A DNA stretch of 35,711 nt from Catajapyx aquilonaris (lineage: Eukaryota), in contig KZ539037.1 in the NCBI GenBank assembly GCA_000934665.2, positions 1-35,711 of the forward strand. The letters are read 5' to 3'. The notes beneath the pieces were generated by a model, which saw nothing but the letters and a program-made list of their open reading frames with translations, did not search any database and was not told where the DNA came from. Shown here piece after piece: positions 5,058 to 34,770 of the stretch (position 1 is the stretch's first letter; every line of letters begins with the position of its first letter). The position numbers and the translations under genes were made by a program.

Positions 5058-5130
5058 TGACGTCACCATTTGCCACCTTCCAATGACGTCATCCCCTCTT
5101 AATTTGGGGGGTACCCGGAGTATGACGTCA
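5058..5130. promoter_or_regulatory. Cluster of three perfect CRE palindromes (TGACGTCA)
   Basis: TGACGTCA at 5058-5065, 5084-5091 and 5123-5130. The motifs are certain; function is not shown. Confidence 0.4.
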
Positions 5131-6755: not shown

Positions 6756-7686
6756 AAGGGAAGGTCACGGGGTGATAATGACGGATCTTGATGAAATTGA
6801 ACATGCTAATACAGGACAATATATGATACCCAAAAATGAAATATTTCGTGCGGAACCCCATATTTGCAAAAGTTATGACGTCTTAAAGTTTCAAAAATAA
6901 TACATTTTCATACTCCATGGGATTACATTAGCGACCACATATAATGACATTGAAGTGTGTAATCAGTTTCTAGACCTTTTCTCAGATGTCGGAAAAAAGT
7001 GATACAGAACGGCTCTGGCCGTCCGTGCGTCCGTCCGACCGTCCGTCTGTGGACAGGTATCAAGGCCTAAACCGTAAGAGATAGCGACAAACGGTTTTCA
7101 TATTCGGATTGAGCGTGACCAAAATATGTTTCATGGTCAACTTCTGGTGACCCGCCTCCCGCCACTTCCGGTCTATTCCGGGTTCACTCTATCCCCTCTA
7201 TCCGCACAAGTCTACTTTAGGGAGGGGTTATCGTTGGATTTCGAAGTTAGTTTCCGTGTATTCCTGACCGTGTTTTTCGGGGATTTACTCCGGGTTTTAC
7301 CTGACTCTCTGGCACATGGGCTGTGGAATTTATTCCTGACGTTGGACATGTTTGCAATGAGCGTCATCGGCCGCCATGATGCTATCGCCCAAGCCGATAC
7401 TGGAATCGATATGTTGCCTAGGTTACGATATATCGATTCACATGCTCACTGAAAGAATGAGAAAAGGTCTAGAAACTGATTACACACTTCAATGTCATTA
7501 TATGTGGTCGCTAATGTAATCCCATGGAGTATGAAAATGTATTATTTTTGGAACTTTAAGACGTCATAACTTTTGCAAATATGGGGTTCCGCACGAAATA
7601 TTTCATTTTTGGGTATCATATGTTGTCCTGTATTAGCATGTTCAATTTCATCAAGATCCGTCATTATCACCCCGTGACCTTTCCTT
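6756..7686. mobile_element. Fold-back element with 229-bp near-perfect inverted arms (possibly Kolobok/T2-like ends) and a HINE-like core
   Basis: 6756-6984 and 7458-7686 are reverse complements, with about 3 mismatches by eye; this explains the twin MGFRTKYFIFGYH ORFs on opposite strands. Ends are AGGGAAGG...CCTTTCCT, flanked by CTGA/TTGA. Confidence 0.85.
6971..7471 (+). mobile_element. Helentron-associated non-autonomous element (HINE/DINE-1-like)
   Basis: Sub-TIR TAGACCTTTTCTCA ... TGAGAAAAGGTCTA, an adjacent partial inverted copy (GAAAAAAGT), then a (CCGT)n microsatellite and CTGTGGACAGGTATCA. The same block occurs at 22437-22965 and 34771-35592. Confidence 0.55.
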
Positions 7687-7713
7687 TGAGTATATATACC
7701 CGTTCATACGGTA

Positions 7714-7851
7714 CTATCGGGTTCAAATACTTTTGGCCACTTTATCCTGGTCTTGAAGCAACCCTTCGCACAGACCCCACGTTAAGGAGGTGTGTGTGAA
7801 GGGTTGCTTCAAGACCGGGATAAAGTGGCCAAAAGTATTTGAACCCGATAG
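7714..7851. mobile_element. 138-bp Tc1/mariner-type MITE
   Basis: ~59-bp TIRs CTATCGGGTTCAAATACTTTTGGCCACTTTATCC... / ...GGATAAAGTGGCCAAAAGTATTTGAACCCGATAG, with TA on both sides (7712-7713, 7852-7853). Confidence 0.85.
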
Positions 7852-8160
7852 TACGTACCGGTATATGTTGCACATCCACGTGTACTGGCAGCTCGTGTAT
7901 TCCGAACGGGCGCGTCCTCCTTCTATAGGCCTTATAGTGAGAATCGGCGAGGATACAACTATACCTTCCGATCGACCTGCTTCTAGGGAAGCTGCCGAAC
8001 TCAGGCGACCCAGTCACTAACAACCAATGAAGTGCGGTGTATTCAGCACGATGTACGTGATGAGGTCTAGCCCTTCTATGGTGACATAACCGCTCACAAG
8101 GCGGACAGAAAGCTGTCAAAGATACCACCATCCTTATTTGCTTTTAATATAGCGTGCTTC

Positions 8161-8310
8161 CCCGAAAGTCGACTCAGATCCGTATCGGTGGTTATCTCGT
8201 GGACATTCGCCTGTCTCCCCTGACTTTCCGGATGCCACACTTGAAGGTCAGGGGAGAGGGGCGATCGTCCGCGGAATAACCACCGATACGGATCTGATCC
8301 GACTTTTGGG
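8161..8310. mobile_element. 150-bp hairpin MITE, family unassigned
   Basis: 8161-8226 (CCCGAAAGTCGACTCAGATCCGTATCGGTGGTTAT...TCTCCCCTGAC) pairs with ~8244-8310 (GTCAGGGGAGA...ATAACCACCGATACGGATCTGATCCGACTTTTGGG). No clear TSD. Confidence 0.7.
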
Positions 8311-10088
8311 ATGTATACACCGTGCATATAGGGCTGTCTCTTCTTCCCGAACCGACACTATAGGCTGATATAAAGTAGATATACAGCTACTGACACGAGA
8401 CGCTAGATAGAGCATATCTAGTGATTAGATTATTATTTTTGCGAGAGATAGTGGTTATTTCCTTTCCATACAAGGATATATGTATTGCTTACGGAAGTGA
8501 GCAGTAATTCTGGACGGTGTCAACAGAGTGAAATGGGCTCATCTTTCTGTCCGCCCATGCCACCAAGAGATGGAATTGGGCAAAGTAGGATATTCCGTAG
8601 TCCTCATGGAATTGGAAATATCGAGCGTGATTTAGCCAGCAGCAGGGGCTAGCAGAGGATTTTGTTCGTTCTGAAGGGAAAACTTTTCGTCCCCGGCAGC
8701 AGCAGCCGGGGATTCAGACGGGCCTAACAAATGTCAACAGGGCTCCGATAAGTACCAGCAGCCTGGCGCTTCTCTCCCGCTACCTCCGCTATATACCCTT
8801 CTTTCCACCAAATGTATGCAAAGTCGCACCAGTCGAATATATTGCCCAGTCTGTCATGCGGGTCATCCGGATGGGGTCATGTGTAACGCTCCTCACTAGA
8901 CAGCAGTGGCGTCTTCTGGATCTGAAAGAGTCGTGAAACGGCCTGGCTGCAGGCTGGTCTCAATATTATTGGACCACGACTTTGCGGGGACAGGAGGAAT
9001 GACCAGAGGAGGTCAACCTTCACACATGTTCCGTGTGTCCAACTTGAAGGGGGGTGACGACTGCATCCCACGAAAATGGAGATTAGTGGTGAAGAGGTGT
9101 GGGAGATGATGGGTTGGGTGGGGGGTAGAATGGGGTGCTATATAGTTGCCCCCAGCAGGCCTATCAACCCAGGTCATGTAATCGATTTGCCGTCAGCGGC
9201 TTGGGGAGGGGGGGGGGGGNNNGGGGGAGGGGGGGGGTTGAAGATTTGGGGGCAAAGTTACACCCAGTGGCCCACGCTAAACTACCCAACCGCATATTAG
9301 GGGGCATCTTTGGATTGTTGTGTGTCATAGACATTTATTTGACTTTTAGAGTGTGGAAAGTACATGGAGTTCTCCCAGACAGAGTGGAGTTTTCACCAGA
9401 GACGAAGCCCTTCAAGACTTGGAGCACTCGTCAGTCTGCTTCTACTTTGTGTAAATGTAAAACCTTTGTAAGGTTGCTGGATCACATGCCAGTGGGTGAG
9501 GGGGCCACAAGTATACCTGGAAGGAGAAATATAACTACTGCAGCGCGAATTAGGCGAAAGTTGCACTAAAATGGGTCTGGAGCGAAAGCTTTTGCAAAAT
9601 TCCAGAAATTTCTTAATAATTTGTACTAAAGCGCACCTGGTAACAGCTGCGTTTCGGTGGTTCACTGATGATGGAGAATTAATGGGCAAAAATGCATATT
9701 TGCACTATTTAGTTGGTTCCCAAACATTCCGTATACTTGGAAGGGAAGTGCAGTGTTGTGGAACATCTTGCGACATGAAATTCTGGGTATGGCTCAGGAT
9801 GGCCGTATAGAAGACCACCCGTCATGCCTATAGCTACTGCATATACAGGAGTCTAATCTGAAACCCCCTCCGATGAATTTATCACTCCATTAGTTTCATG
9901 TTCTGTTGCCACCCCCCGCTTTCCCTTCCACCTTCTCCATCATCCTAACTTGCCCCAAGTGTAGGCCGTTTTTACACCACTTCTCGCCACCACGGCGCCC
10001 CAACCGAATTAACTCCTCCGTTCTGCAGGGGCCGTATGGAGGAATGACTTACTTAGAAATTGAAGCTTCCACAACTCTGATATATATA

Positions 10089-10418
10089 CAGGGTGTTTCA
10101 ACTTTTTGTCCGAACAGTTATCGGAAAATTGCACGTAGCTGCTACTTTGTAAGCAGTGACTTGCAACCGGTGATTTGTCGGAGTAATGGGGAATGATGGG
10201 GTAAAAGAGGGTCACACATCCCATGGCATGTGTGACCCTCTTTTTTCCAGGCTTGACCCTCAATTTTCAGCGGGCACCACATGCCACTTCAACCTACGAT
10301 TCGCAGGGAATATTCCCCGTTTCTCCGAAAAATCACCGTTTGAAAGTCATTGCTTACAAAGTAGCAGCTACGTGCAGTTTTCCGATAACTGTTCGGACAA
10401 AAAAGTTGAAACACCCCG
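10089..10418. mobile_element. 330-bp Tc1/mariner-type MITE, copy 1
   Basis: TIRs CAGGGTGTTTCAACTTTTTGTCCGAACAGTTATCGGAAAA... / ...TTTTCCGATAACTGTTCGGACAAAAAAGTTGAAACACCCCG (~100 bp), with TA flanks. Internal palindrome AAAAGAGGGTCACACAT-CCCATGGC-ATGTGTGACCCTCTTTT. A second copy lies at 32254-32584. Confidence 0.9.
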
Positions 10419-10524
10419 TATATATAGATATAGATATAGATATACCAAGGTTCTAGTTTATACCGTGTAACTTTGATTGTCGTAAGGGGTACGTTCTGGA
10501 CATTTTCATTTAGCTTTTCAAATT

Positions 10525-10615
10525 AGAGGCGTGGTAGAAATGTGGCTGTTGCAGGACGTCCCAGGGAGATTCAACACGGGGAAAGCCAGGGGTTGGGATC
10601 GAACCTGGGCCGTTT
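10525..10615 (-). mobile_element. Degenerate tRNA-SINE fragment
   Basis: GGGATCGAACCTGGG (reverse-complement B box), in the same context as the SINEs at 22270 and 28350. Confidence 0.35.
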
Positions 10616-11849
10616 TAAAATAAAACCAGGAGCCATTTTGCCTTGTCTTAATTATTTTTTTGTCTCCTGGTAGCCTACATTCGTAGTCAGGACTGATATA
10701 AATCCAGGGACTAGAATAATTACCTCTGAGACCAACCCGGATGATTTTGCAACAAAGACGCGTACTTCGTTTGTCCCGTGCCAGCATGCTGAATATATTA
10801 TGCATGTTTTCTATTGAATTTCCGTTTCACATTAGTTTTTTTTAGTTACGTTGATGGAGCATACCCAAAACAGTCCTATAGCACTGGCTATTAGCAGTGA
10901 TATTCCAAGATAAATTCTGACTGGATATGCCGATCATTAGTTTTAATTACGTAGTTATTACGTGCCTCAGCGAAAAAGATGAAGACTATCAGTGATGCAA
11001 GGTTCCAACGAGATCACTGGAAAACTCTTGATGGCTCTCTCCACCCTGAATGCACGCACTTTGAAACACAATATAAGCTACTTTATATTCGCGTTGGAGT
11101 AGAGCCATCACCGGTTTTCCTCTGAACACGTAGCGAACTCTTTTTGGTCGCGAGAGTACAATAGTGCCTCTAGTACCTATACGGCAGCTTTTTTGAACTA
11201 CATTTTGCGAATTTTGCTGGTTTCTGCGAGTGTATTAGTCAGATTTCAAAAATACAATATTTCACTGCTCTATACTACCGCTACAATAGTCCGGAAGACG
11301 ATTCCTGGATCCTTCTGACGTGACTTACCTATTAAGTGTTACATTTAGAATGAGGGACGAAACTTGTTAGAATCTTGCTCTGTGAAATAAAAAAGCCCGA
11401 TGTATATACTGCCAGCATCACATATTGTATAAGCACGATAGAACGATGATGCTAGAATACAATGATTAAAACTGTGGATTCAGTTTGAAAATAAACCTAA
11501 ATGCAGAACGACCAGTGTCACACTGGTGTGAAGGTTTTTTTTCCCCTAAAAATTTGTCCACGGGACAGTAATTTCTGTATCAGAGAACTGATTCGACGAA
11601 CAAAAAGCACGTGTCAAATGTGTAACTCAATTTCGACCATTTCAAGTCCGTAACATCTAAAAATAATTCTTTTGTGCTAACCGCTACAAAAATTGAAAGT
11701 AGAGTAAAACTCAGCTGAAAAGTGAATATCCGGAATGATGGCTGGAAAAAAAAAATAGGTAAAGGGAACGTACCAAGGATAGATTATATCTTTCCTATGC
11801 CAGACTCAGTAGAGCGAGCACACGCTTTTGCTCGCTCCGGTTTGAATTG

Positions 11850-12330
11850 ATTTTTTTTTTCGCACCTGAACGGAAGAATAGCGGAGTGAACATTGACTTG
11901 GAGGCAATCCGGCCACTTCTGGAGGCCCTAAAGAAGTCCATTGTTAGTGAATAAATCGCTCTCTCGGACATCACGACTATAAGCTCGATGCCCGGGCACC
12001 CCTGAAAACTTGGGACGCGCTGTCCGGCGAAGCAGAACGGCCGGATAGTCTTATATGATGGCAATGGAAGTTGGAACAGGCCGTGGGGCCGTGTCCCGCC
12101 AGTCCGTAACCAGGATTAGGACACCGCCACGGATTTTTTTGAAGAAGCGCAGTTTTACACCCTCCCCAGTCTTCTATCGGCCCCACATCGCCTGGGACCA
12201 TAAAAGGGTTTTTATAAAACCGGAATCGACCAATCATCGCGGTCTGCTCCGGACAATAAACGCACCCCGCTCGTGCCCGGTATATCCAGCCATACGCTCG
12301 CTTATATGGATGTTGCGAAATCACCGTACG
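11850..12330 (-). pseudogene. Possible decayed LINE endonuclease remnant
   Basis: The minus-strand translation has AGCVYCPEQ...PFMVPGDVGPIEDW, loosely resembling the APE-endonuclease motifs GxxYRPP and ILGDFN..DW. Weak. Confidence 0.25.
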
Positions 12331-14640
12331 AAACTCCGTGCATTTTGGCCAGTACCAGTACGGGTATGGTTAGATTTTTCATGCTGCTTAAAATGTCCCG
12401 GTGGACTAATAAGGAACAAATATCCTAAAGCGTGACAGCTTATTCCTCATCCAGGCCTCTGTCAAAAGCTACCCCCAGACCACTGTAAAATGTTTGTTCG
12501 GGCAGCTCCGAATCCAACGAGGCGGAAGGGTGGGTTTACGAGGTTCAACCACCCCAAGAGCGGGCTTTACCAGGCAGGGTGTCCCGAAAGCTATCAGCCG
12601 ATTCTAGGTATCAAAGTTTGATGCCGGCCCAAGTCGTACAGCCAGCGGTGTAACAAATGATGCATGCGAGGTTGGGACGGGTCAAGACTTGCCCATCCTC
12701 CTGTAGCGAACCACCGTCCCGGAGCGAAATCTTGGGAATGTATCCCCGCAGCGCAGCGGTGTGAATGGTGCCCCCAGCCCCCTTCCACCCGCTCCTCCCC
12801 CCACAGACGGGGTGAGGACGGCCGCATGCGGTGGGGATTATGGAATATGGGAGGCAGCCCTGAAGGCCCCTCCAGACTGCCGGATCGATGGATGGGGGAG
12901 GCAGGGTGGGCAAAAGGCGGGCGGAGGACGGCCTGGGAGATAGCGAAGGAAGTGTGGGGGGTGGAAAGTGGGGAAGGCGTAATCAGCGGTGGGGAAGAGC
13001 GGATCCCCCACTCGATAGGGCCCGCACCGGGCTCTTCTGGTGTCAAATCCGGCTCCGTAGTAACCTCTGACCGAATGTGCCTTGAAAACCGGATGTTCCA
13101 CGGCCCATGGTCTGAACCTCACGGAATATACAGTACTGTAAAAGTCAAACCAGTTTTTGCGCCTGATTGGTATGCCTCCCGTGGTACAAGAGTGCGGTTG
13201 CATACATGCCAGGATGAATCCGGGCCAAATCCGGCTGGAGGGGGGGGGGGGGGGGGNACCCCGGGGGCCGGGGTGGGAGAAAGGAGGAAGGGGAGAGGGG
13301 AAAAGTGGCTGTAATGGACGGTGAGGGGGTGAAGTGAGGAAGCGGTGACCTGAGGTGGTCAATACGGGCTGGAAGTTTGGTCACGCATATATTCTGGGTA
13401 TTGTTGTGAGGTCTACTGAGTACCCCTGTAGGTAAAATGTAATGATTAACTAACTGGAGCATATGTGCACTTTTTGCACCACCTTGTACACAGTACATGT
13501 TACAGACCACACCTCTTTAAACCCCACCCCCATTTCACCGCGAGGGCTGTAATATATTCACCACCCCTTTGCACGACGCCAAAGCCTGATAACAACATGG
13601 GGCTGCAGCAGAGCAAGTGCGCCACTGTTTGCAGGTGTGCCAATAGCAAAGCTAAGGAATAAAACATGGGGCAAGTCACAGGGTCCAAGGGGGACTGTAG
13701 GTCCATTACAACATTTCTGGCTGATGAGGAGGGGGAAAAGGAAGAGAGTGGATGATTCTTGCTCCCCCAATGAGAAACAAGAGAAGAGACCGAGTGGCGT
13801 GCAAGTGATTGGATGTCATTAGGGCGCTCCTTATGACATTGGTTATGAGCCTGATGGTTTTACTTCCGTTTTACATTCCCTGCATTTCTCTTAAATTGAT
13901 GCGTCGCTTTCTGAACAATTTCTTGGGTTATTTAATGTCAAAAAACTATAGACAGAATCTTAGACAGAATCAAGTTTTACTCTTTGCGTAAATGCCAATT
14001 AAGGACAAAAATTTTAATTGTGCCGGATTATTCACTGTAAAGATCTGATTCCCCCCCCCCCCCTATTTGTGTCCATTTAGACCTATATGCTAGTAGGTTA
14101 ATGTTCCAAAATATTCGGCAATAAACATGTCAGAAAATTCCTGCATTTTTTAATGTTTTGCCGTCACGAAAAAGATATTGGAGGGTTCAGTGTCGTGACG
14201 TCATGTCCGGCTTCGGCTTGCAAAGATGCACATCTGCGCACACTTTGGAAAGCAAAACAGTCGCATTACATTGTCTACCGCAAACGGAATTTACTGTACA
14301 ATTAGTCTTGGTGACAAAACATTTGGATGCACTATAGTGCAGCTACTGGAAGACACCAATTGACGCTACAAACAAAAGCAGTACAATTACACGAGAACTC
14401 AAGTCACTTACACGGAAGCGGATTCGAAATTGCATCTCCATATAATTTATTCGTCTTTATGTAGCGTCTCTTTTCCTCCAGAAAATCAGGCATGACTTTA
14501 CGAAAATGAACCATCCTATATATCTATATGATATGACGAATGACGATACGGCTAATATCGGCTCATTTGGATGTGCATTTTTACTCAGATTCTACTGTCT
14601 TCCACTGGGAGGGTATTTGGCAACACTATGCATTTAAGCA

Positions 14641-14669
14641 GAGAGAGAGGGGGGAGAGAGAGAGAGAGG

Positions 14670-14714
<45 letters not shown>
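14641..14714. repeat. (GA)n microsatellite
   Basis: Interrupted GA dinucleotide run. Confidence 0.95.
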
Positions 14715-14715
<1 letters not shown>

Positions 14716-15739
14716 CAGGGTGTGGGAAGGTTCTGGGATCGATCCCCGATTTTTCTGTGGTTCTCTCCTGATTAGGCCACAGGCACTTCTTCCACGCTCC
14801 TCTTCCCTATTCACCCTGTTATTGGTCGATCGCCTTCCATGAACCAGAACATATAATTATGGTATATTTAGGTAGCCTAAACATTTTTAAAATCATTCCT
14901 GTTACTTGCGTGATGTTGCTAACAGGCCATTGGGCGCATAGCGCGGGTGAGAAGAGGAGCGTTCCATGCAGGAGAAGCCCGTACGGATCAAAGTCATAAT
15001 ATTGCATTATGAGTAATGCATTCATTTAATTTCAATTAGTATTTTAAAATGTTTGCTACCGTCTTCCAACATTAAAAATGACCTTGACGTTGCTCTTAGG
15101 ATCACTGCAAAGCGTCTGTGGCATTTATATGAAGAGACGCGCAGTATAACATGTACTTGCATTTTCTGATTTATTTCATGTGTTTAAGTAGTGCTATGGT
15201 GTCTTCGTAAATATTCCTCTACATTTCTGTAATATTTTTACTGCACTTTTAGAATCGTTACGTCAATTTAGACGTAACGAGGCAAAGTTTAAGTTAGACA
15301 TTTCCCTGTTTTTTAAATGATTAAATTAGGCATTGTCCTTGTTTACACTGTGACAGCGGTGAAACCAGAACCCTAATGGGCCCGTTGACATGTTGCTATT
15401 GAGTAGAATGATATTGACGGGGCAAGCTGACCGGAAGTCACGTGACGTGCGTACCCGCCCAAATCCGTATGTCGGAAGCTCTGGAGAATATCGCCTCCAA
15501 AGTGTTCTAATTAATGTGTCCGTACTCCGTAGTTGTTGGCGATTTTTGTTACTAAGCTGCTTACAGTTATTCTAACAGTTACTTTCTGGAGGTATAAGAT
15601 TAACTGCTAGTATTAGGTTGAATGGAAGAATTCATTCAGACCAGTTATGGGACCGTCTATTTCCGTGACGTAATTTCAGAACTACGCATCGTCCCATACT
15701 TGTGGCATCCGTACTTGACATCACCGCGTGCCCAACTTT

Positions 15740-16040
15740 CACCCCCTGGTAATTTGGCCCCTCTCTGGCCGAAACCAGCCGCACGAGCAAATCAGGCCCA
15801 TTCGGATGCCCGCCTTCAACCACATCTTGGTGACGATGCATAAAAATGGGCTGGGTTCCTCCTCCATCTCCAGCAGGCCGACAGAGCCGTGGGTCCGGCC
15901 GCATGCAAGGCAGGCACAGGCAGCACCGGGTTGTGTTAGCAGTCCGGATGGATGGGCGAGCGGTCGTTAGCTCGGGCGGCCAGGCAGTGCTGCACGCGGC
16001 CACTTCCGGCGTTGGTTGGGGACGCCGCTTCCGAAAGGGA
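15740..16040 (-). pseudogene. Possible decayed LINE ORF2 N-terminus (APE endonuclease; CR1/L2 group)
   Basis: Across frameshifts the minus strand reads RPSIRTAN..., LLEMEEEPSPFLCIVTKMWLK and GWFRPERGQITRG. These fall in the order expected for PSILLAN / LCxTETWL / FRxDR..RGGG. Confidence 0.3.
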
Positions 16041-17258
16041 GGGAGAGACCAGGTTGGACTGCCAAATGTGCTGGGGAAAAACCAACCTTTGGGCATGCGC
16101 ATTCCCTTGGTAGATCCTGATGTGTACGGCCCGTTTACACTAGTCGGCACAGGAAATGGAGGGAGCCTTGCCGTCTGAACGAGGACTCCCCTTGAGCTCC
16201 GGAGGCTAATGAGAACGGCGGTTGGGAGGGTGGGAAGCGGGCGGTGGCGGAGACGCTGACGATGCCGGGGGCGGAATAGGTAAGCGCAGGGAGCGTCGGG
16301 GCTTGCAAGTTGAAAGATAAAGCCATGCCAGCCTGCAAAGGGGGAGCAAAAAGGAAAATGGAGAGCCTGTATACCGCACACTTGGGTTCAATTCTTGGGA
16401 GACATCTGGGTGTGAGTTGCCGGTTGCTATGTGCTTATTCGGCCGATCCCCCTGAATCAGTCACCCTTCTCCGGCACCCCCCATAATGAAGGTGCGGGGG
16501 AAGAGGGAAGGCCCCGTGACCTGCCCATTTTCCATCCCTTCCCATATGCCAGACCTTCCCGGCGCGGCGCCCGGCAATCTCGGCTCAGCTCTAGCGAGAC
16601 TGTGCAATCTGGTGGGGAAGGGGAGGGGGGGGGGATAGAGGAGATACTGTAGATGGGGGTAGAGGAGGGGTTGTATCCGGGGATGGGTCGTCATGTGGCA
16701 ACATCGCTTTCATTCCCTGCCTGCCCTGAGGGCCAATGGGACCGACCTGAATTCGGTTTACGCACCCTTGACTTCCACGCGCCCATGTGATGCATGTGCA
16801 GGTCTACCTCGCCCTTAGGGACGCCTGATGTGGAGGACCGGGTACAGGGAGTTATTGGAGTTGAAAGGGAAAATGGCACCCAATATAGTCAGTCCATTTT
16901 TACTTAATATGCCCAAGTTTTAGGCAAATATGGAATAAGGTGTTTAAATATATATACGAGGAAGTCCCGAGTGGTTGGGTTTTCTAGAGGTCCCATCGCA
17001 CATTTCCAGAGGACCCGTACGAATCAGCTTATCCGGCACTGGGAGGAGTTGGCCAGTTGCCAGGGCCTGCCTGGTCTGGCGTGGTATATATGCCTACTCG
17101 CGTTTACATGGAAGCAAACAGGGATCGAGTTAGATCCTATGCCAGCCTGCAACACCCGGAGTAAGGCGGAGTTACCGTTTTGGGGGGCTAAACAGGCGAA
17201 TTATGCAACTTTCATAGTCGTCTAAGTATGGGCATATTACTGGGGTAATATTACAAGT

Positions 17259-17327
17259 GTGTTTCTTTTATTTGCAGGTAAGAGTCGACCGAAGTTGGAG
17301 TCATCTGATTGGGAGCGTACAGTAAGT
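17259..17327 (+). promoter_or_regulatory. Candidate recursive splice site (ratchet point) with a 44-nt cryptic exon
   Basis: GTGTTTCTTTTATTTGCAG|GTAAGA (AG 17276-17277, GT 17278-17279), then a second donor GTAAGT at 17322-17327. It is on the same strand as the NOL4-like exon. Confidence 0.6.
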
Positions 17328-18207
17328 GCTGTAGCTTGACCCGTGCTGATGTTTAGAGCCGCTTGGCCTTATCGGCTTATCCCGTTTCGGAGAATCAAAC
17401 TAGAGCGAGACAATTGGCTTGTACGGAGCGAGCCCCACAAGTGGCTGCAGCAACTAAAACAGAGTTAAGAAAAAATAAGGTAGGAGCTACAATGAATTAG
17501 CTGATGATTTGGCTGGAGGGTCCAGTTCCTGAGAAGAATATTTTCAGTATATCGTGGGCGTACAGGAGAAATCCGCTAAGTCCAATTTTGTCGGTTTTGA
17601 GTTATTTACATCACTAAGTCGCATTTTTCTGCTCTATCGCCTGGTGAAGTCCACTTGCCCTAAATATTCATGATGAGCCAACAAGCTAGGATTTTAATAT
17701 ATTACCGTGGAAGCAAGTGCAAGGTCAATTCTTTGCTTTGCATTATCGTGATTTCTACAGTATAGTATACTCCACGGGTTAGCAACAGTTAGCTGTAAAA
17801 CTTTTGATCTGTACTCCCGCCCATCGCTCAAAAATGTGTGAACTTAGGTGTAGTCCTCTATCGGTAAATCACTTCGAGAAAACTGGTATTAACAGTCGCA
17901 AAATTGGGCCCTTAGGCAAATCACAAATATTTTTGTGCTTCCCTTCGAATTGTTTACTTGCGTTTCTTAAAGAACATGTTAAAATTACGTAAAATCGAAC
18001 TAATAATAACCAGTTAAACTATTAAGACAAATGCGATAGTCATAAGTTTGTTGCTGTATCGGCCAAGTCGACGACTTCAGCAACACCCTGTTCAGGGTGG
18101 TAACCCCCCACTGGCTAAGGCAAGCCTCAGCATTTAAATAAAAATTTTAAAGAATAAGAGAGGGTGAGCAGGGCGTGCCAGTGTGGTATAACGAAGTGGT
18201 GTGTGTC

Positions 18208-18208
<1 letters not shown>

Positions 18209-18245
<37 letters not shown>
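18209..18245. repeat. (GA)n microsatellite
   Basis: Pure GA run. Confidence 0.95.
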
Positions 18246-18248
<3 letters not shown>

Positions 18249-18507
18249 TAATTAGTGCTTTCCACGGGTGGCGCGAAGTGCGTTTCATTTTTTTTTGTAC
18301 CCTTCCCTCCCCTATTCCCCTCCATCCCCCGCCCCAGCATCCCGAGAGTCGAGGGAGCGAGACAGAGTCGGGGAGAGCCCAAATTAAAAATCCGCTCAAT
18401 TATCAGCCGTCAGCGCACTAATTGCAGGGCCGGCCCCGCCACTTCCGAAGAACTTTGGCATCGGGCAGGCACCCCCCCGATCTTCACTGCCGATCATCCT
18501 AGATATA

Positions 18508-18583
18508 TCAGAACAGATGGGCTAGTCAGTTGACTCAGATAGTCAGTTGACTCTGACATTCAACTGACCACCCCATTTTTTCT
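18508..18583. repeat. Small degenerate inverted repeat with an internal tandem duplication
   Basis: AGAACAGATGGGCTAGTCAGTTGA pairs imperfectly with TCAACTGACCACCCCATTTTTTCT. TAGTCAGTTGACTC occurs twice in direct orientation. Confidence 0.35.
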
Positions 18584-19648
18584 ATGTGTGAATTCCGTCT
18601 AGTTCAACTTGAAGCCTATTCTTGTTTAGGGTAGTTCCCCTTTAGGCCGGCGGGAATTTCATTTTGAGAGCGGGTGGGGGGCAGTTTCGAGAAGGGTCCA
18701 CGTTTGTGTATGGGCAACATTGGAGTGAGTGGTCAGCAGGTAGGCCAGTGGAGCCAAATGACAATCCCCGGAATTCCAATCAATACAGGGGTGTGTGGAA
18801 GGGGGTCAGGTTTGCGGGGGAGGTGCTTGCTACATGTGTGCAGGGGGAGTCGTAACAAGGTCGATTGGGGGGGGAGGGGGGGGGGTTGAAGAAACCCCTA
18901 GGGCTTTGTGAAACGGACATCCCACCCGGCGTCCTCCCCCTTCCCAGCACCGACGGTGCCGTTTCCTCGCGGCTGTTATATATTATGGGGGGGAAAAGGA
19001 AGGGAGGAGGAAGGAGGGAGTATGTTCTCCTCCCTTTGCAAACTGGAGCGTCATAAGCAGGAGAGGGTCGTGCCGAGGAGAACTAATAGCGTGGGCCGAT
19101 TGCCAACTGGGGAGGGTACGACCGGGTCCCAAGCTGGAAAAAGCCGGCATATCGATTCTCGCAAATTTGTTTACCCCGTTCCCTCCACCCCACGGTTCCT
19201 ACGCCCGACGGAGCTCTCCCGAAAAAAAGGAGGACGGATGTGTCCTGTACGTACCGGACTTGCTTTCGTAGATTTTCAGGTGAATCTGTAAATCACCTAG
19301 ATCACGAAAGTGCGGTTCTTCCTATGGGAAACCCCGGTTAGGAGAGTCCGTACCGCCTAGAAACGGGTGCCATCGACCCTATACCTAGAGGCGCTTCTAG
19401 ACAATGCATCTCGTGCGCTTCCGCAATTGCTTGGGTGCATACCTGAAACAAGATCTTACCCACTCTGTACCCGAACCCAAGGCGGTAATTTAGGAGTTGT
19501 TTTCATCGTCTTGTGTACGTTAAAATCTGAAGTATTAAGTTACACCAAGAGCTCTTGGTTACACAAAAGGCTGCACCATGAACGACTCTCATCCCTTCCT
19601 CAGAAAAGTATTGACCTGATATAATAATAATATGTATTGAACTAAATA

Positions 19649-20385
19649 CAGGGTTATCGAAAAAGAATGCTCGGATTTTTAAAACCCAATCACTCGAAAA
19701 CTTGCTGTAGACATACGGTATCTTAATGGTTTAAGTTTTGAAATGCTAAGAAATGTCTAAACTGATGATTTTTCTTCGATATGAGCTCCATTTGTTGCTC
19801 GGAAAATGTCAGTACGGTAATCGGTGTCATGCCTAACCCGGTCAGACATGTTTGGAGTCACCATTGTGAGCCTATCCTGTATAGGTGCTGGAGATGCCGG
19901 ATCTTTTCACGATCCATGTATCTCCACAAAAAAGTCCATCTGGGTAAGATCTGGGCTTCTGGAGGGTGGCCTATCCATACTGTATAGGCATTGGGAAACT
20001 TCTCATTCAAGACTTCGCACACTTGGATGCTGAACAAATGAAACTTTTCTACTGCAGGTTTGTTTCATGGATAAAGCGACTTTTTATGTGCATCATCAAG
20101 AACAATGTGTGTGCTAGGTGGTGTAAAGACCCATCATATCCAGCACCTACGGGATATGATTGCAACGGTAACTCCAGCAGATACGATTGAGCGGGTGTAG
20201 CACGAGACCGAATACCGTATTTTTTATCTGCTGAGCGACATATAAAGCTCATATCGAAACAAACCAAGGTGAGACCAAAACTTCAGACATTTCTTATCAT
20301 TTCAAAACTCAAATCATAAAGATATGTGTACAAGTTTTCGATTTGTAGGGTTTTAAAATCCGAGCATTCTTTTTCGATGACCCTG
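19649..20385 (-). mobile_element. Internally deleted, decayed Tc1/mariner-superfamily transposon with transposase remnants
   Basis: ~110-bp TIRs CAGGGTTATCGAAAAAGAATGCTCGGATTTTAAAACCC / GGGTTTTAAAATCCGAGCATTCTTTTTCGATGACCCTG, with TA flanks. The minus strand encodes, with frameshifts, VLNEKFPN..WIG, PSRSPDLTQMDFF(LW) and VTPNMSDRVRHDTDYRTDIFRATNGAHIE. These match the WPPRSPDLTPLDFFLWG...RATNGAHIE C-terminus of such transposases. Confidence 0.9.
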
Positions 20386-21330
20386 TATTTGAGTCAATAT
20401 TCATGTTATCCTAACTCGACGTCTGATTCCGATAACATTTTTTTTGTCTAAAAATTATCCTTAGGTGTTATCAACAATATTAACTGCTAATACTGTATTA
20501 GGTTGAATAGACCAGTTTGCAAGAAATGGGCTTATTCAGACCTCGAATGTCCTGGATGCAGAGGAAGGACTGGTGGGACACGCCGGACGAGCATTATACA
20601 AATATTCCCGGTCTTTGCACCAGGTATAATACACAAACATTCACACCTCAGTTATAATGATGCTGCTGATATAAGGCTGGAAATGTTCGCGTAATGTCCC
20701 ATATCCCAAGTCGGAACATGAAATGCACCGTAGATGTGCATGGAAATCGATAAGAAAAGTATGACTATATGAAGACTTGAAATGCAAAACGTTCAGAGTC
20801 GAATCTAGTTTTATGAGGGTTTCAAGTTATGCGATCTGTTTGGATCAGCCATTATTTTCCCTGTAGAGGACTGTAATATTGTTCTACCAGAAAACTGACC
20901 GGGCCATCGTCGCAAACCAGTTCTACAAAATCAAGTCTATGCGCATCTCCACATTATAACACAGGGGCAGGTCCATATTTTTCCAGCATCACTTATGGAA
21001 GGCTGTTTGCTTCGATTGATGTGGTCTGCAATATATCCCTACTCCCTTGCGCAAAATGAAAAAGGGGGCACCCATACCTGCTGCTGGTGTGACCATAACT
21101 CAATATAAAAAAAACTACAATGTTGATGCACCTTTCTGATCCGTCAACCGTGATATACCGGGACCGCAACTGTGAATCAGTGATTCATCGTTGGCAGCAC
21201 AGGTAGGCTACACCTGGTGGGTGGAAGCAGCAGCGGGGAGCAGAGGCTTCCCACGTTCTCTTTTGCCCTTATCTCCCCAGTGGTTGGCGCGGCAAACGGA
21301 AATATTCATGAAGCCAGCGTCGCGGGCGTC

Positions 21331-21372
21331 GAGAGAGAGAGAGAGAGAGGGAGGGAGAGGGAGAGAGAGAGA
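21331..21372. repeat. (GA)n microsatellite
   Basis: Interrupted GA run. Confidence 0.9.
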
Positions 21373-21790
21373 AGGGGGGGGGGGGAGTTGGCGGGGGAGG
21401 TGGGGAGCGGGTTGGGGGATGGGCTTTCCCGGTTCCCCTTTCACGCCCTGATTACGCTCTTTGAAGAGGGAAAAGCCGTACTCCGGGAGTCACCCGGAGT
21501 TTCGCCTGCACCTGAGCAGGCTGCTCTGTCTCACACTGCTAGTATCAACTTCGCACAATGCGTTTTCTCTGGCAGAATCCTGCGGCACGCAGGACCCGTA
21601 TAATTGACTGGGTTTTGGGTGCGGAATTTTACGAACGGCTGGAAAAATGTAGGGGCCTATAGCGATGGACCAAAACATTGTGTTGCCATCGGGGTCACCG
21701 ACCACCTTGAGTTAAGCAAATGACGGTAAAGTCAATGGGTGGAATTTTCGTCCCACTGTTAGTTACTTCTAACTTAGCAGTACCAATATT

Positions 21791-22406
21791 GAGGGCGACA
21801 CGGTGGAGAAGTGGTTAGCGCCGCAGCTTTCCACCTCTAAGGTCCCGAGTTCGATCCCTGGGTCGGACGGAGGATGCTTTAGTATGTGGATAGAGTTTCG
21901 ATGGGTTCTCTCCGTGTTCGCGTGGCTCTCCCGGCTCCTCACACAATCAAAATCCCTCACAGCGCAGGCAATGATTAAAGACGGTTAATTTTTTTAACGT
22001 TACCCCGTGATAAGGCTGAGCATTTTTAGGGGGGTGGAATACCACCATTTCACTCCATTTTCCTGTATTAACTTCATTCACCGGTGCAAGGAGTCAAGGA
22101 TGTAGGGTATATAATATAGGGATAGGGATTTTTGGGGAGGGATCATTGGTGCAAGTGCAATGTCGGTAAAGGGGTCGTGCTGTTCCCCAGGAGGTTAGGT
22201 TGCCAGACACCTCCTTGGTGCAGGTCAGAGACCCTCCTGACGCAGGTAAAAGGAAAGTTCCCCAGGCGGGGATCGAACCTGGGGCCTTTCACTCAGCAAG
22301 CCGAGACGTTACCATCTCGGCCATCTACACCTCCCCTAAAGTCGGTTATTTATAGAAGATGATCCCCTAAGAGGCCCAAGGAGGCCTTTCACGGGGTATC
22401 CATTAT
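21791..22406 (+). mobile_element. tRNA-derived SINE with a V-SINE-like central domain, interrupted by a second SINE
   Basis: A box TGGAGAAGTGG and B box AGTTCGATCCC; body TGTGGATAGAGTTTCGATGGGTTCTCTCCGTGTTCGCGTGGCTCTCCCGGCTCCTCACACAATCAAAA. The tail CCCCTAAGAGGCCCAAGGAGGCCTTTCACGGGGTA resumes after the nested insert. TSD AGTACCAATATT at 21779-21790 and 22407-22418. Confidence 0.85.
21988..22336 (-). mobile_element. Full-length tRNA-derived SINE (type A), nested antisense
   Basis: The minus strand begins GGGGAGGTGTAGATGGCCGAGATGGTAACG (A box) ... GGTTCGATCCC (B box) and ends ATGGTGGTATTCCACCCCCCTAAAAA...CACGGGGTA plus an A-rich tail. TSD TAAAGACGGTTA (21976-21987) / TAAAGTCGGTTA (22337-22348). 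Confidence 0.9.
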
Positions 22407-22436
22407 AGTACCAATATTGGCCATGATACTGCTCAG

Positions 22437-22965
22437 TTTTGTAGAATTTTTCGAGAAAAATTGTCTTATAGAACGGCTCTGTCTGTGTGTCGTCTGTCTG
22501 TGGACAGGTATCAGACAGACAGAGCCGTGCTATAAGACTTTTTTCGATTTTCGGGTTACGGGATCACTATCCGCCCCTTCCCCCTGGCTGCCCCTTCCCC
22601 CCTGACCTCCCACTCCCCCCACCGACCCCTCCTCCAGATCACCATTTCCCACCTCCCTCCTCCTATCCCCTGATACCTGTCCACAGACGGACATACAGAC
22701 AGCCGTGCAATAAGACTTGTTTCGATGGATGAGAAAAGGTCTAAAATATGGGTTTGCTAGGATATATTTTTTAAAGGGGAAAGGGGCCGTCTGGGGGTAG
22801 GTGGAGAGAGGGGGGAAAGGGTAAGTCCACTTTTGGCAGAAAATGAGTTATGGGTGGTTTCAGTTTCAGTCCCAGTCCCGTGACGGACGTTGGGGACAAT
22901 AGCAGTAAACATGAAAAAGTCTACTCTAATCACGCTCACATGATTTGACAATCTTGTTTTTTTTT
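22437..22965 (+). mobile_element. Helentron-associated non-autonomous element (HINE-like), copy 1
   Basis: T-run, 5' sub-TIR (TAGAATTTTTC), (CTGT)n-like microsatellite, 3' sub-TIR GAAAAAGTCTA (22913-22923), short stem-loop AATCACGCTCACATGATT (22928-22945), terminal T-run. It is colinear with the minus-strand copy at 34771-35592. Confidence 0.75.
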
Positions 22966-22968
22966 CGT

Positions 22969-23015
22969 ATTACCCCCTGATAGGGCCATGGGTCCTTTTA
23001 GGGAGGAAGGGGAGA
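22969..23015 (-). mobile_element. Retroposon 3' tail fragment (shared SINE tail)
   Basis: The reverse complement CCTCCCTAAAAGGACCCATGGCCCTATCAGGGGGTAAT resembles the shared tail. Confidence 0.45.
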
Positions 23016-23070
23016 TTCACAAGCGGTCTTGTAGTCATTTCTGACCCTCTTAAATACCAGACCTTTTCTC

Positions 23071-23134
<64 letters not shown>

Positions 23135-23149
23135 GATTATTATTATTAT
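23071..23149. repeat. (ATT)n microsatellite
   Basis: About 26 TTA units with one interruption. Confidence 0.97.
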
Positions 23150-23179
23150 TTTGGTCACTTGTCGTGCCCCGATTCAGGT

Positions 23180-23311
23180 GCCTTATTCTATTGAAACTAC
23201 TACATTCGACCATCTGATAGTACTGAGGCCCCTGCTGGATCGGGGCACAAGCTACAAAAAAATAACTACTTCGGGCGATACGAAAACCACCCACGAACTT
23301 GGAACACCCTG
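23180..23311. mobile_element. Solo right arm of a Tc1/mariner-type MITE
   Basis: Ends GAACTTGGAACACCCTG followed by TA, the same CAGGGTGT terminus class as the element at 10089. No partner arm was found, and the left boundary is approximate. Confidence 0.45.
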
Positions 23312-23480
23312 TATAACTTTGATCAATTACCATTATACACACCAAATTAGTATTTCATGCATCTAGAATCGCCTTTCTGCTGGACATCTACTGTCAGAAA
23401 GGGTTGGTCAAAAATGACTAAATATTATGTCGGATCTATTTCCAATATATGGAATAGTCAAACTGAACTAAATATTAGCC

Positions 23481-23535
23481 TCCCCCAAAAAGGGTTATGC
23501 CCTCGTAAGGGGTTACATAATAATAAATATAAATA
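23481..23535 (+). mobile_element. 55-bp, severely 5'-truncated retroposon (tail only)
   Basis: TCCCCCAAAAAGGGTTATGCCCTCGTAAGGGGTTAC plus an A-rich tail, flanked by a perfect 15-bp TSD AACTAAATATTAGCC (23466-23480, 23536-23550). Confidence 0.8.
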
Positions 23536-24893
23536 AACTAAATATTAGCCATATTTATTACAGTCGCAGAGAGCACTACTCAAAAATGATTAAAATATGA
23601 CCCTATATTCCACTGATGTATTGGAAACAGCTTCGACAAAAAACTTACGGTACTTTTAACTAACCCGTTCTGGCAGTGTATTGAAGAAATGGAATTTTCG
23701 ATATAGAGACTACAGTACACTACATATACCTTATATTAATATACCGGTATGTTGTATAATGTGTATAAAATGCATCTATTATGTTATGGCTTTCGGTTGT
23801 TTGAGATTGAGTGCGAAGTTTATGATTTTACTTACAATATATTTATGGTTACACTTTATTGATTGTCACCTAGTGTTTGTTTGTGTCATATTTTAATATT
23901 ATTTTCATTGTGTTTTGGCTCTCCTACATAGCTGACTACCCCTTTTATAGGAAATAGCGGTGTGTTTGTTTATTTTGTTTGTTTGAAAATAACACTCGAT
24001 TTCCCATTTGTTTGAGTTAAGATTATTTGACTTCAAATTAACTTTCAATTTTCAATTTAGCCTGCGATCGATGTCTAGACCATGTTGACTTTCTATGTTA
24101 ATTTTTTTTTGGCTATCGATGCACTTTTTACACGAATTCAACATCGCGGATCGAACTCATAAAAACAACACCAAAAAACAATCGTAAACCGCTACTCCTT
24201 TTTTGTGAATACATCTCCATATGCTTTATGATTAGGAAAGTACCCTAGCACAGTGCCGTAATCGATTACTAGGTAATCACGGAATACGGCATAGCAGTGC
24301 GTGGGAGGGAAGCCCCCCCCCCTCCCCCCCATCCCCCCTCCATAATTATGGATATGCGAATCCCGCACACCCTTGAGGCGTCCCGAGCAGTGATGTTGAG
24401 GGTAGGGGAAGCTGGGACATTGCGCGTACTTATGGCGTAACAAAATGTGGCAGACGTGCCATCCGGGACTCCCAGATGGAATTTTTCAAAATTAACATTA
24501 ATGACGCGAATTTCCCTCCCGCATATTTTGAAGACTCGCCTAGAGTGAAAGGCGGGCCCCGATTAAGACAAGCAATGCGAATGTATTTAAAAAATGGTGT
24601 ATCCAGTAGGCTATATAGAGCAGGAGCTGGCATTGATCTTCCTTCTTTAACATCTCTCTCCCTCTCGTCCTTTTCCTTCCGCCCTCTCGGGGGGAGCACT
24701 TGGTTGGAGGGGGCTGGCGGGGCGGAGGGGCGGAGGGGAGCTAATCTAGGGGAGAGGAGGGGGTGGGAGTGAAGTTGGATTCCGACCTTCCGACCATGCC
24801 TCCGACCCTGAATTATCGCTCCCTTCGATTTCCCCCTTCCCCTCTCAATGCTGGAATACCCAATTCTTCAATACATACGCGCACAGTACATAC

Positions 24894-25100
24894 TAGGGCT
24901 GTGCGATATTTCGATACATCGACTGTCGATACGATATTTTCCTAATATCGAAGTTGCGATATCCGACGCTTGGCATGTTCGATGTATCGAATATCGCGAT
25001 TTTTCGATGTCGGTTTTTCGATTTTAGATATATCGACTTCGATTCGATATTTTTTAAGTATCGAAAGTCGATATGTAATTTCGGATATCGCACAGCCCTA
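24894..25100. mobile_element. 207-bp hAT-superfamily MITE
   Basis: TIR TAGGGCTGTGCGATAT / ATATCGCACAGCCCTA with a perfect 8-bp TSD GTACATAC (24886-24893, 25101-25108). The interior is saturated with CGAT/ATCG motifs. Confidence 0.92.
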
Positions 25101-25434
25101 GTACATACTGTACATACATACATTTATTCCCCCCCCCCCCCCCNCCCCCCCCCCCAATTTGGGCAGGATATAATTAGGAGGAGCCCTTATTTCCACCTCT
25201 TCTTGGGTTTGTGAGGAATCTTCTCGGCGGGAAAATAATGGGCCTCAGCGTATGCTAAATGCTAATGCAGACTCGGCCGTTCTACTGGGTGGGGGGTAGA
25301 CATGCAGCATCGTCTACCTCCCCAACCAGGCTCCAGCTCACCATCCCAGTGTTGCCTCTAATGAGGAGGTGGAGGCTTTTTGGAGGTTGGCTAGAGCTGG
25401 GGTGTGGTGGGGAGAGAGACCAAGCGAGAGATCA

Positions 25435-25900
25435 ACTAGATGCGCGTCTCATAGGCGGGCTGTATATGGTGTAGTCTGAAATTCTGGTTTGTTGAGGGGG
25501 AATGTAGTACATCGTAATTTGTGTTCCGACTCCAAGGCGGGACCTAAGGCGTGAAAAAATATCGGTTTCAATCCGGAGGCGGAACATGTATTACAGTGTT
25601 GGGGTGTATAGGATTAATCTTTGAGGTGGAATAAGTCGGTAGGATATACTGTACAAGAAGGGTGTCGAAATGGCATCTGATGTTCACAGATGCATCGGTA
25701 AGCACGTTAAAGGCTTTGCTGGCATAGTGACAAGTATATACGGAGCCGACGGAGTGCCAGAGTACAATGCTGGACTTGAAGCAGTAGCGGATATTCCCGC
25801 GAACTGTCGCAGTATTGAATATACGTAGGCTATATAGTTGTATAGTGCCTCCTATCTTGGAGTACGGTACCGCAGGATTTGGATTGCATATAAGGGACCA
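25435..25900 (-). pseudogene. Possible decayed 3' part of a LINE ORF2 (L2/CR1 group)
   Basis: The minus strand gives HYTTI*PTYIQYCDS and, further on, TARL*DAH. These loosely match P.L.YC and A.LWN.LP in the expected order. Weak. Confidence 0.3.
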
Positions 25901-27183
25901 CTCTCAAGTCGCGTATGGTGGACTATGAGTGCGAGCGAGTGCCCTTCTGCGGGCGATTGTGTCAACTCCAGATAGATCTATACTCGCACCAGATGACGGT
26001 TAGTTCCACGCGGAAGGGCACGAGTAGTCCATCACACGCACGTAATATGGGAACAGGCGTCAACAACTCTCCACGTATTTTGCCTATTGTTGCAGTGTGT
26101 TTGTGTATACTCAACTGAAAAGCTACAGGAAACTTCTCTTTTATTTAAAATTATATGCTAGGATTATCGTTCTGCTATTGCTGAATATCAGCTGAACCAC
26201 CATGTAGGCCTACTCCATGTTTATACTCTCAAGTCAGCGAAGATCTCCTTAGCTTCAAAACATCAATTATTCCACCACAGTCGAAACCTGTTTTATTCAT
26301 CCCCGGGCTGGAATCGGAGGTAAACGTTTAATTGCAGAAGCCAACTCCCCATATTTTTTTTTTCCTGAGGAACCGTCATTTCTGCAGATGACAAGTTAGT
26401 ATCGGATGAGACTGTGAGGACTGCTGTATACTGGACTATATAGTAAAATCCACAGGGCGCAGCGTGAACGCGAGCTCCAGGAGAGCCTCATGGGAAATCA
26501 GGCGGAGAGGAAGCTCTCTCCCTCTCCCCCGCCTCCCCCTTGCTGCCATCGTAGCAAGGCCTTGGACCGCAGGCGAGGACAAAGAGGACGTGGGTGCATT
26601 GTTGCGGTGGACAGGCGGTTTCTGAACCAGGTCCTAGCATCAAGGGGCATCCTATTTGCGCGCGGTTGGCAGCCAAGCACGACAGATATAGAATTTATTC
26701 CATGATTTACCCCCCCCCCCCCCCCTTCTNCCCCCCCCCTTCGATATAGGGCGGGGGGGGGGGGGGGTTGGAATGTAAACCGTCATTTACTTATTTATTC
26801 CAGCCCAGTGCTGGGTCCGGACACTGGTGGTTCACGGTGGGAGGTAGTGGTGACCGGGTTCTATGTTGCTATGGGGGGGGATATCGGAGGTGTATGGTTA
26901 GTTTGCGGGGCATATTGAGAGGGTATATTAACAATCACTGCAGGGTGTAATGGCGGAGCAGGAAGTGTGGTTGCTTTGGAGTAGGCTGTTAGGTGCTACT
27001 ATAGCTTGGAGCCGTGATTGTAGTGTAGTTTTTTTTATTATTTGGGTGGAACATTTTCTGATGCTAATTTTGAAGGGTTCCTTTTGAAGTGTCTGTAGTG
27101 AGGTTATGAAAAATATACGGAAGCTGCGAATATCCTACATTGCTTTTAATTACTGTAGCCTAGCTGTAAGCTCCTAAGATGTA

Positions 27184-27450
27184 AGTAGTTAGAAAAATCG
27201 GAGTCCCATGCCACTTCGGATATAGTAGACCAGAGTCCCACGCCAGATAATCCCCTACAATATTTTACCGATTTTAACAACTTTTAACGAAAATTTCACG
27301 TGTTAAAATATCGTCTCAACGGAATAATGGTCGTTACACATCTTAACGTGAAATTAATGTTAAAAATCGTGAAAATGATGTTAAAATTCGTTAAATCATA
27401 TGGCGTGGGACTCTGGTCTACGATATGGGACTCCGATTTTTCTAACTACT
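27184..27450. mobile_element. 267-bp MITE-like element with Polinton/Maverick-type ends
   Basis: Perfect TIR AGTAGTTAGAAAAATCGGAGTCCCAT / ATGGGACTCCGATTTTTCTAACTACT, and an inner IR GTAGACCAGAGTCCCACGCCA (27225-27245) / 27401-27421. Flanks are GATGTA (27178-27183) and GATGCA (27451-27456). The structure is certain; the family is inferred. Confidence 0.7.
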
Positions 27451-28101
27451 GATGCAGCCTGTACTATTCAATACCTGTCAGATGCAAGTTGCATTTTAAA
27501 TTCAGAAATTCATCGCCATTCGCAGGGCCTTAAAGTCAACCTATAATAATAGCAACTACTGTAGACTTCATTGACAGCAACTGAAAGTAACCGCTTAATA
27601 AAAGCCGCATCATTCCAAAAATACTAAGTTAAATACAGAGCAGAAGGCAGAGCAGTGTACTTCCTGTTCGCAAAAAAAGCGAAACGATAGAGCCGACATA
27701 CTTATGACTGGCAATTCCATAACCTATTTGCAAAACCTGTCATATGTATATAGTATTGGATCGTCGAGGCTGGGTGATGGGAGGGGGGGGGNCACAGACT
27801 GGGGGGGGGGGGGAGATGGGAAGACTCAATTCCACCTAAAATTAGCTTCTCGGCATAGAAAGGGCTGCGTTCTCAATGACGTCATGATTTCTTGATGTGG
27901 TATTTGGAAAATCCTACCAATTTCACATATCCTTGGAATGAAACTTCTGAATGTCATGTGGCATTGCGAAATTGGGGGAAATTTTATAAAGTGAAATTGA
28001 TACCTAATTAATCTGTCATTAGCCAATGTCGTTAATGATTATCAGAATTAATTGCCACAATGCACTCTAACTTTTAAAAGAGTGTGTTCCAGTCACTGTA
28101 T

Positions 28102-28416
28102 TTTTTTTCCTTACCTCATTGGGAGAATCATCGCTCCTTTCTATTTTTCTGAATTTTTCTTCTGTAACTCCGTACAGAGGAGAAAGGGAAATGAGGAAGG
28201 GAATGGGGATTTGATGGGGAAGGGACACGGGTGCAAGTGCAATATCTCAAACTGGGCCATGTGCAGTCCCCCAGGAGATCAGGTTGCCAGACACCTCCAA
28301 GGCACGGGTCAGAGACGTCATGACGTAGGCGAAAGGGAACTCCCAGGCTGGGATCGAACCTGGGACCTTTCGCTCAGAAAGCCGATACGTTACCATCTCG
28401 GCCACCGCACCTCCCC
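28102..28416 (-). mobile_element. Full-length tRNA-derived SINE (type A), copy 2
   Basis: The minus strand starts GGGGAGGTGCGGTGGCCGAGATGGTAACG...GGTTCGATCCC, and the body is homologous to 22140-22336. TSD AGTCACTGTAT at 28091-28101 and 28417-28427. Confidence 0.9.
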
Positions 28417-30944: not shown

Positions 30945-31050
30945 AGCATAGTGGTATAGTGGTTTAGACACTTTCCACCATTGAGGTCGTATGTTCTATC
31001 CTCTGGTCGGTCAATTGATTTTCATGTGGGATAGAAGTTTACTATTGGGT
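30945..31050 (+). mobile_element. Degenerate 5' part of the V-SINE-like element
   Basis: GTGGTATAGTGGTTTAG..CTTTCCACCATTGAGGTC..GTTCTATCC..TGGTCGG..ATGTGGGATAGAAGTTT aligns with 21802-21900. Confidence 0.6.
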
Positions 31051-31141
31051 TAATAAAATTTAAATTAATCAAGAAATGATACTGTGGGCAGAATGATTTA
31101 TGCATAGACTATGTGAAATCTAGTGAGAAAAATTGGTTCAT

Positions 31142-31474: not shown

Positions 31475-31559
31475 AAAATTGGTTCATACTCTAATTAGCA
31501 CATTTTACAGTTTTAATGTTTTACAGTACACAGTGCATAAGATCTTGTCCGTCTCTCCT

Positions 31560-32086: not shown

Positions 32087-32253
32087 CGATTTTTTTTAAA
32101 AAAGTGTATGATTGATCAGTTTCATAATATGCAATGTAACGCAATCTCCAATATGAGACCAGGTCTCATGCATGAAAAATCGATATGCTTAGAGCATTTT
32201 GAAAATACTGTAGACTATTAGAACTTTTACAACCAGGCACCTCTAATTATTAT

Positions 32254-34726: not shown

Positions 34727-34770
34727 TTAGAGTGGACTTTAAACATGCCTGACTCTATAGGCTCCAATTT

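Follow-up and report, generated by a model that had tools for sequence, protein, structure and literature searches.

In their preprint, Duff et al. showed that Drosophila ratchet points are juxtaposed splice-site motifs in which the pyrimidine tract is unusually prominent, that 196 of 197 of them carry TT at positions -5/-6, and that recursive branch points lie between -36 and -21, with a peak at -30. The host introns in that study span 11.3-133 kb and leave in segments of 2.6-63.6 kb (median 16,368 nt), the sites are strongly conserved among flies, and the recursive microexons of Ubx use the donor GTAAGA. In 2018, Pai et al. reported, in the available part of their paper, a high-confidence site in 63% of fly introns longer than 40 kb. 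More recently, Joseph & Lai (2021) stated, in the portion of the article that is accessible, that each ratchet point needs a cryptic exon of about 50 nt with a donor of its own, generally out of frame, and that such exons are skipped where the regenerated donor outcompetes the exon's own.

Genome-wide maps of recursive splicing cover Drosophila and a few vertebrates. In the available extracts of the vertebrate reports, fixed recursive sites are no commoner in lungfish than in humans and recursive splice sites are rare in mouse brain, so that long introns alone do not imply recursive splicing. The accessible part of a 2026 preprint describes recursive splicing in humans as commoner in those first introns whose upstream donor is flanked by CG-rich sequence. 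Among arthropods other than Drosophila, our literature search, which covered some of its sources in part, returned a single recursive site, the motif-predicted one in intron 2 (230 kb) of locust NPF1 (PMC8892266). The same search found no published report of recursive splicing of NOL4, in keeping with what a first, sequence-only reading of this DNA had supposed.

That reading had placed a candidate ratchet point in a long intron of a NOL4-like gene of Catajapyx aquilonaris. The window referred to throughout is the whole stretch of 35,711 nt that was analysed, and the features discussed are collected in Table 1.

Table 1. Features of the NOL4-like locus and of the candidate ratchet point, in positions of the window.
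Feature	Positions	Strand	Remarks
NOL4-like exon 1, coding part	2266..2745	+	Homologues; conserved block from ATG 2479; ends in phase 0
Exon 1's own 5' splice site, GTAAGG	2746..2751	+	All relatives' alignments end at 2742-2745 or run on into V (GT)
First intron segment, 14,532 nt	2746..17277	+	Would leave as one lariat; no NOL4-like coding match inside
Branch-point-like GTAAT	17245..17249	+	A at 17248, at -30 from the 3' splice site; putative
Pyrimidine tract and acceptor	17259..17277	+	Ends in CAG, with AG at 17276-17277; TT at -6/-5
Candidate ratchet-point donor GTAAGA	17278..17283	+	Directly 3' of the acceptor AG; would be regenerated once exon 1 joins here
Candidate cryptic recursive-splicing exon, 44 nt	17278..17321	+	No stop in the incoming frame; frame shift +2
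Cryptic-exon donor GTAAGT	17322..17327	+	ACA before GT
Remaining intron, 18,390 nt	17322..35711	+	Up to the window end; next conserved exon further on

The assignment of the host gene is borne out by protein homologues and tblastn matches alike. The 89 codons from 2479 to 2745 match the N-terminal block of nucleolar protein 4, with 209 homologues at E<=0.001, and close with ATCAAG. All the named homologues are arthropod (mayfly, cockroaches, dragonflies, spiders and horseshoe crabs) and are about 59-63% identical to exon 1; the closest protein matches reach 71-73%, too little for any of them to be the species' own protein, those at 71% being metagenome or assembly proteins. When ten relatives were compared with the window by tblastn, the matches were confined to 2362-2760 and brought up exon 1 only, and the later conserved parts of NOL4, with the strongly conserved next block, KKVAVVENFFDIIY..., that full-length relatives carry, gave only spurious matches (E<=10). 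Because no later conserved exon lies within the window after 2745, the intron, which the first reading had called long, runs from 2746 past the window end and measures at least 32,966 nt.

The frame is already open from 2260, ahead of the conserved block, and an ATG at 2266 begins MSDRSLRRRESRD... Since this resembles the start of the closest relatives, MCERARRSRDSS..., the true start codon is probably 2266 rather than 2479. The GC content of the exon 1 region (0.62) is also the highest of any kilobase in the window, which offers a weak parallel, by analogy, to the CG-rich flank of upstream donors reported for human recursive introns.

A relative's transcript of the gene occurs in an invertebrate metatranscriptome, in which a 1,266-nt contig matches 2171-2208, 2262-2313 and 2451-2705. 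Its identity to exon 1 is about 90%, with 25 differences in 255 nt, and therefore it belongs to a relative and not to this species; at 2208-2262 and 2313-2451, both within the N-terminal part of low complexity, the contig has other sequence instead. From this contig it follows that a close relative expresses the gene and that its transcript begins upstream of 2171. The search had been made with exon 1 (2200-2745), giving 0.08 of 52 sampled words, and contigs of the run were then matched at 85% likeness to 1800-21500. Five matched, four of them over 19-86 nt; none fell on the stretch that includes the site and no junction to 17278 appeared, a result that, in RNA of a relative, is neutral as to the use of the site.

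Re-reading of the window confirmed the motif to the base: an acceptor is followed at 17278 by GTAAGA and, 44 nt further on, by GTAAGT. The junction reads CAG/GTAAGA, with pyrimidines at 13 of the 17 positions upstream, and lies on the sense strand, at the distance of 14.5 kb into the intron that had been given for it. As in Ubx, kuz, Bx and several hundred other Drosophila loci, a T-rich acceptor thus abuts a GTAAG donor, and the TT at -5/-6 of the fly sites is present here too. The donor hexamer is the same as that of the Ubx microexons. At the position of the Drosophila branch-point peak, -30, there is a branch-like A, placed there from the sequence, and an AG at 17256-17257 (-22/-21) sits between this putative branch A and the acceptor, 8-9 nt past the A. 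An AG as close as 8-9 nt to the branch A is expected to be too near for use in AG selection. Both sizes fit the fly ranges of host introns and removed segments, the NOL4-like intron measuring at least 32,966 nt and its first segment, on the sense strand, 14,532 nt against the fly median of 16,368 nt.

The likeness extends to the putative cryptic exon. Against the roughly 50-nt, generally out-of-frame cryptic exons described for Drosophila in the accessible part of the literature, the one proposed here is 44 nt long and, if included, would move the reading frame by +2. Its translation in the frame of exon 1, VRVDRSWSHLIGSV plus 2 nt, was reproduced as first given; were translation to run on through the GTAAGT at 17322, it would stop immediately at an in-frame TAA (17323). 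As had also been pointed out, joining exon 1, which ends in AAG, to this position would recreate a donor, AAG/GTAAGA, and the sequence agrees. Calculated as U1 duplex energies, a proxy for the NNSPLICE score of published work, the regenerated donor reaches -9.5, the cryptic-exon donor, which is preceded by a non-consensus ACA in place of CAG, -6.7, and the native donor of exon 1 -10.0 kcal/mol. By this proxy the hierarchy of the two competing donors is the one that the available fly work describes, regenerated above cryptic, and under the competition model the 44 nt are therefore predicted to be skipped.

Some features set the site apart from the Drosophila cases, namely a host that is not a fly, a use that is so far a prediction, and a pyrimidine tract that is interrupted, by an A at -8, a G at -4 and GTG at -19 to -17. 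Among named sequences, those closest to exon 1 come from mayfly, cockroach, dragonfly and spiders (59-63% identity). The recursive-splicing exons of vertebrates, described by Sibley et al. in 2015 and in later work, follow in the available extracts the same logic of exon definition, donor competition and frame disruption upon inclusion. In those extracts, however, they are mostly expressed, and only nine fully suppressed sites are definitively noted, whereas the donor hierarchy at the NOL4-like site predicts full suppression, as in the fly. The locust NPF1 site (PMC8892266) likewise belongs to an arthropod other than Drosophila and to a long intron and, in the accessible part of that paper, was predicted by means of the Drosophila motif and a branch point upstream of it, as was done here; unlike the NOL4-like site, which is a sequence prediction, it has some backing from U2AF65 RNA immunoprecipitation.

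Taken together, the anatomy of the site fits the fly model point for point, its use being predicted. In the reading that we tentatively favour, at just under an even chance, the first coding intron of the NOL4-like gene holds a Drosophila-type ratchet point together with a cryptic recursive-splicing exon, a site that would normally leave no trace in the mRNA. In such a scheme, once about 14.6 kb of the intron had been transcribed, the 44-nt unit would be recognised by exon definition, with U2AF binding the T-rich tract and its AG (17277), U2 sitting close to the A at 17248 and U1 pairing with the GTAAGT at 17322. The exon 1 donor at 2746 would then be joined to 17278, releasing a lariat of 14,532 nt, and the new junction, AAG followed by GTAAGA, would serve as the donor of the next step, since of the two competing donors it has the stronger calculated pairing with U1. 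That step would lead towards a further ratchet point or to exon 2 beyond the window, and the 44 nt would be removed with the remaining intron, so that the mRNA would keep no trace of them. Were the GTAAGT at 17322 to win instead, the 44 nt would be included, and the frame shift would yield a target of NMD or a truncated protein.

This last outcome is the core of a different explanation, in which the 44 nt are a regulated cassette or poison exon, present in a fraction of the mature mRNA of some tissues, where it would shut the gene down through NMD, and lost elsewhere by ordinary skipping without any re-splicing. The strong acceptor, the consensus GTAAGT, the incoming frame free of stops and a length not divisible by 3 would all suit such an exon, and the available literature has examples of expressed recursive-splicing exons as well as of poison exons. 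Its own donor, however, is the weaker partner of U1 by the same proxy energies, with ACA at -3 to -1, and 44 nt is short for an exon without aid. Besides, none of 256 protein matches of relatives has such an insert after the end of exon 1, and the relatives that were inspected either keep reading into intron sequence or go on to the conserved exon that comes next. We regard this explanation as improbable. Accordingly, of the poison-exon switch suggested by the sequence-only reading, the out-of-frame length of 44 nt stands, and inclusion is the less likely event, given that the regenerated donor pairs better with U1.

A more serious competitor of the ratchet point is chance: the motif may be an unused pseudo-exon of a long, repeat-rich intron, which the spliceosome ignores or uses at the level of noise. 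On the sense strand of the intron there are 108 AG/GT juxtapositions, of which only the one at 17278 combines at least 11 pyrimidines in 17 with at least five of six matches to GTAAGT; on the antisense strand none of the 110 does. In a simple score, made of counts and distinct from the published position weight matrix scores, the site reaches 23 and the runner-up on either strand 20, so that within the intron the claim that this is the best AG/GT of the window holds, the site ranking first of the 108 sense sites. The second-best sense site, at 19280 (19259-19286), has 12 pyrimidines in 17, TT at -5/-6 and the donor GTGAAT; it falls far short of the first in strength, and the 110 nt that follow it contain no consensus donor.

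The rate at which chance would produce such motifs was estimated from introns of the same composition, 400 each simulated with order-1 and order-3 Markov models, and from 251,960 nt of real control sequence, consisting of the other strand of the window and its upstream part together with both strands of the loci of 28 relatives. What speaks for an unused pseudo-exon is that the acceptor-donor motif (at least 13 pyrimidines in 17, donor at least five of six) arose in at least one place in a fraction of 0.195 (order 1) and 0.13 (order 3) of these simulated 33-kb introns and occurred once in the control sequence, that the site was chosen post hoc as the best of the window, and that eight GTRAGT hexamers lie on the sense strand of the intron. 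In the same direction point the lack of any structural signal, in that the RNA fold of 17200-17360 has no stability beyond that of shuffles (z = 0.31) and an Rfam search of the window gave no matches, and the rarity of fixed ratchet points in long introns of vertebrates, as given in the available parts of those reports. What speaks against it is that the full compound motif (tract, TT and CAG/GTAAG, with a GTRAGT 20-110 nt downstream, here the donor 44 nt on) appeared in a fraction of 0.005 of the simulated introns at both orders and nowhere in the control sequence, and that all the independent published descriptors that could be checked (TT, a branch-like A at -30 as putative branch point, the segment length, the donor hierarchy and the sense strand) coincide at this site.

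The thresholds of the simulation were fixed post hoc at the values of the observed site, and because they were set after seeing it the real chance rate is probably several-fold above 0.005; our own estimate of a fair rate for an equally good site is about 1-3% per intron of this size. The compound feature is thus rarer than the usual chance expectation, though not decisively so. Weighing this chance rate of about 1-3% against an assumed prior of 2-10% for a fixed ratchet point in such an intron, we consider a chance pseudo-exon a real possibility, somewhat short of an even chance. Of the ratchet point as first proposed, the sequence features, namely the motif, the strand, the intron and the regenerated donor, fit, and the actual use is a prediction. 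On a related point, the intron (2746-35711) contains the pentamer GTAAG 25 times in sense and 14 times in antisense orientation, which may reflect a sense-strand excess of U1-type sites.

Comparison with relatives has so far reached a short distance into the intron. The 28 exon 1 loci of relatives, taken from metagenome contigs of distant species, reach no further than 7,424 nt downstream and together supply 41,277 nt, and in this sequence there were two ratchet-like motifs, one sense and one antisense, an uninformative yield. An exact 22-mer spanning the site had no match in metagenome contigs.

The window is rich in short repeated elements, and it is conceivable that a non-autonomous transposable element carries the motif, or that the motif is part of a feature on the other strand, with no role in the splicing of NOL4. 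Beyond this abundance of repeats, the minus strand of 17266-17271 reads AATAAA, within the complement of the acceptor tract. None of the repeated elements covers the site, however: blastn found no second copy of 16300-18300 in the window save for a GA microsatellite at 18208-18246, a fine-grained search found neither direct nor inverted repeats within 16400-18200, and none of 22 reading frames, of which 16 lie no more than 2 kb from the site, matched a Pfam family. An origin of this kind is, in our view, very improbable.

The repeats of the window are of several types. Two inverted arms of 229 nt, at 6756-6984 and 7458-7686, are 99% complementary and 473 nt apart, with the look of a foldback or MITE-like element. 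Two copies of an element of about 320 nt, at 10103-10423 and 32254-32589, are 93-98% identical, and the element has the build of an inverted repeat with a perfect palindrome in its middle, again with a MITE-like look. A repeat of about 190 nt (22133-22323, 28215-28404 and 31400-31462) contains the motif GGGATCGAACC, which has the look of a tRNA T-arm in reverse complement. A minus-strand SINE derived from a tRNA is thus a possible identity for the element; ARAGORN found no tRNA genes in the window. Inverted copies of a further element, several hundred nt long, lie about 12 kb apart in the intron (22457-22918 and 34814-35447) and are 76-97% complementary in several blocks. Long (GA)n microsatellites, and runs of poly-G or poly-C that contain the 27 N of the window, occupy 14636-14730, 18196-18250 and 21311-21430, and also 3972-4012 and 25110-25150; simple repeats are thus plentiful, and the assembly is uncertain at the homopolymers.

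The wider reading of the ratchet point is that an arthropod lineage remote from Drosophila has constitutive ratchet points in the style of the fly, written in the same grammar, and that these divide the first coding intron of NOL4, a proposal that we hold as possible, at somewhat less than an even chance. If the site proved to be unused, it would serve as a caution that sequence-perfect ratchet motifs arise by chance. If its use were verified, the motif grammar of the fly would extend to a distant arthropod with large, repeat-rich introns, and the site would provide a handle on the dosage of NOL4, in that weakening the regenerated donor should force the frame-breaking 44-nt exon into the mRNA. 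Were the wider reading true, ratchet points would be predictable from sequence alone in the genomes of non-model species, and the combination of TT at -5/-6, a branch point at -30 and an out-of-frame cryptic exon of about 50 nt with a weaker donor would be an old arthropod solution for long introns and not a peculiarity of dipterans.
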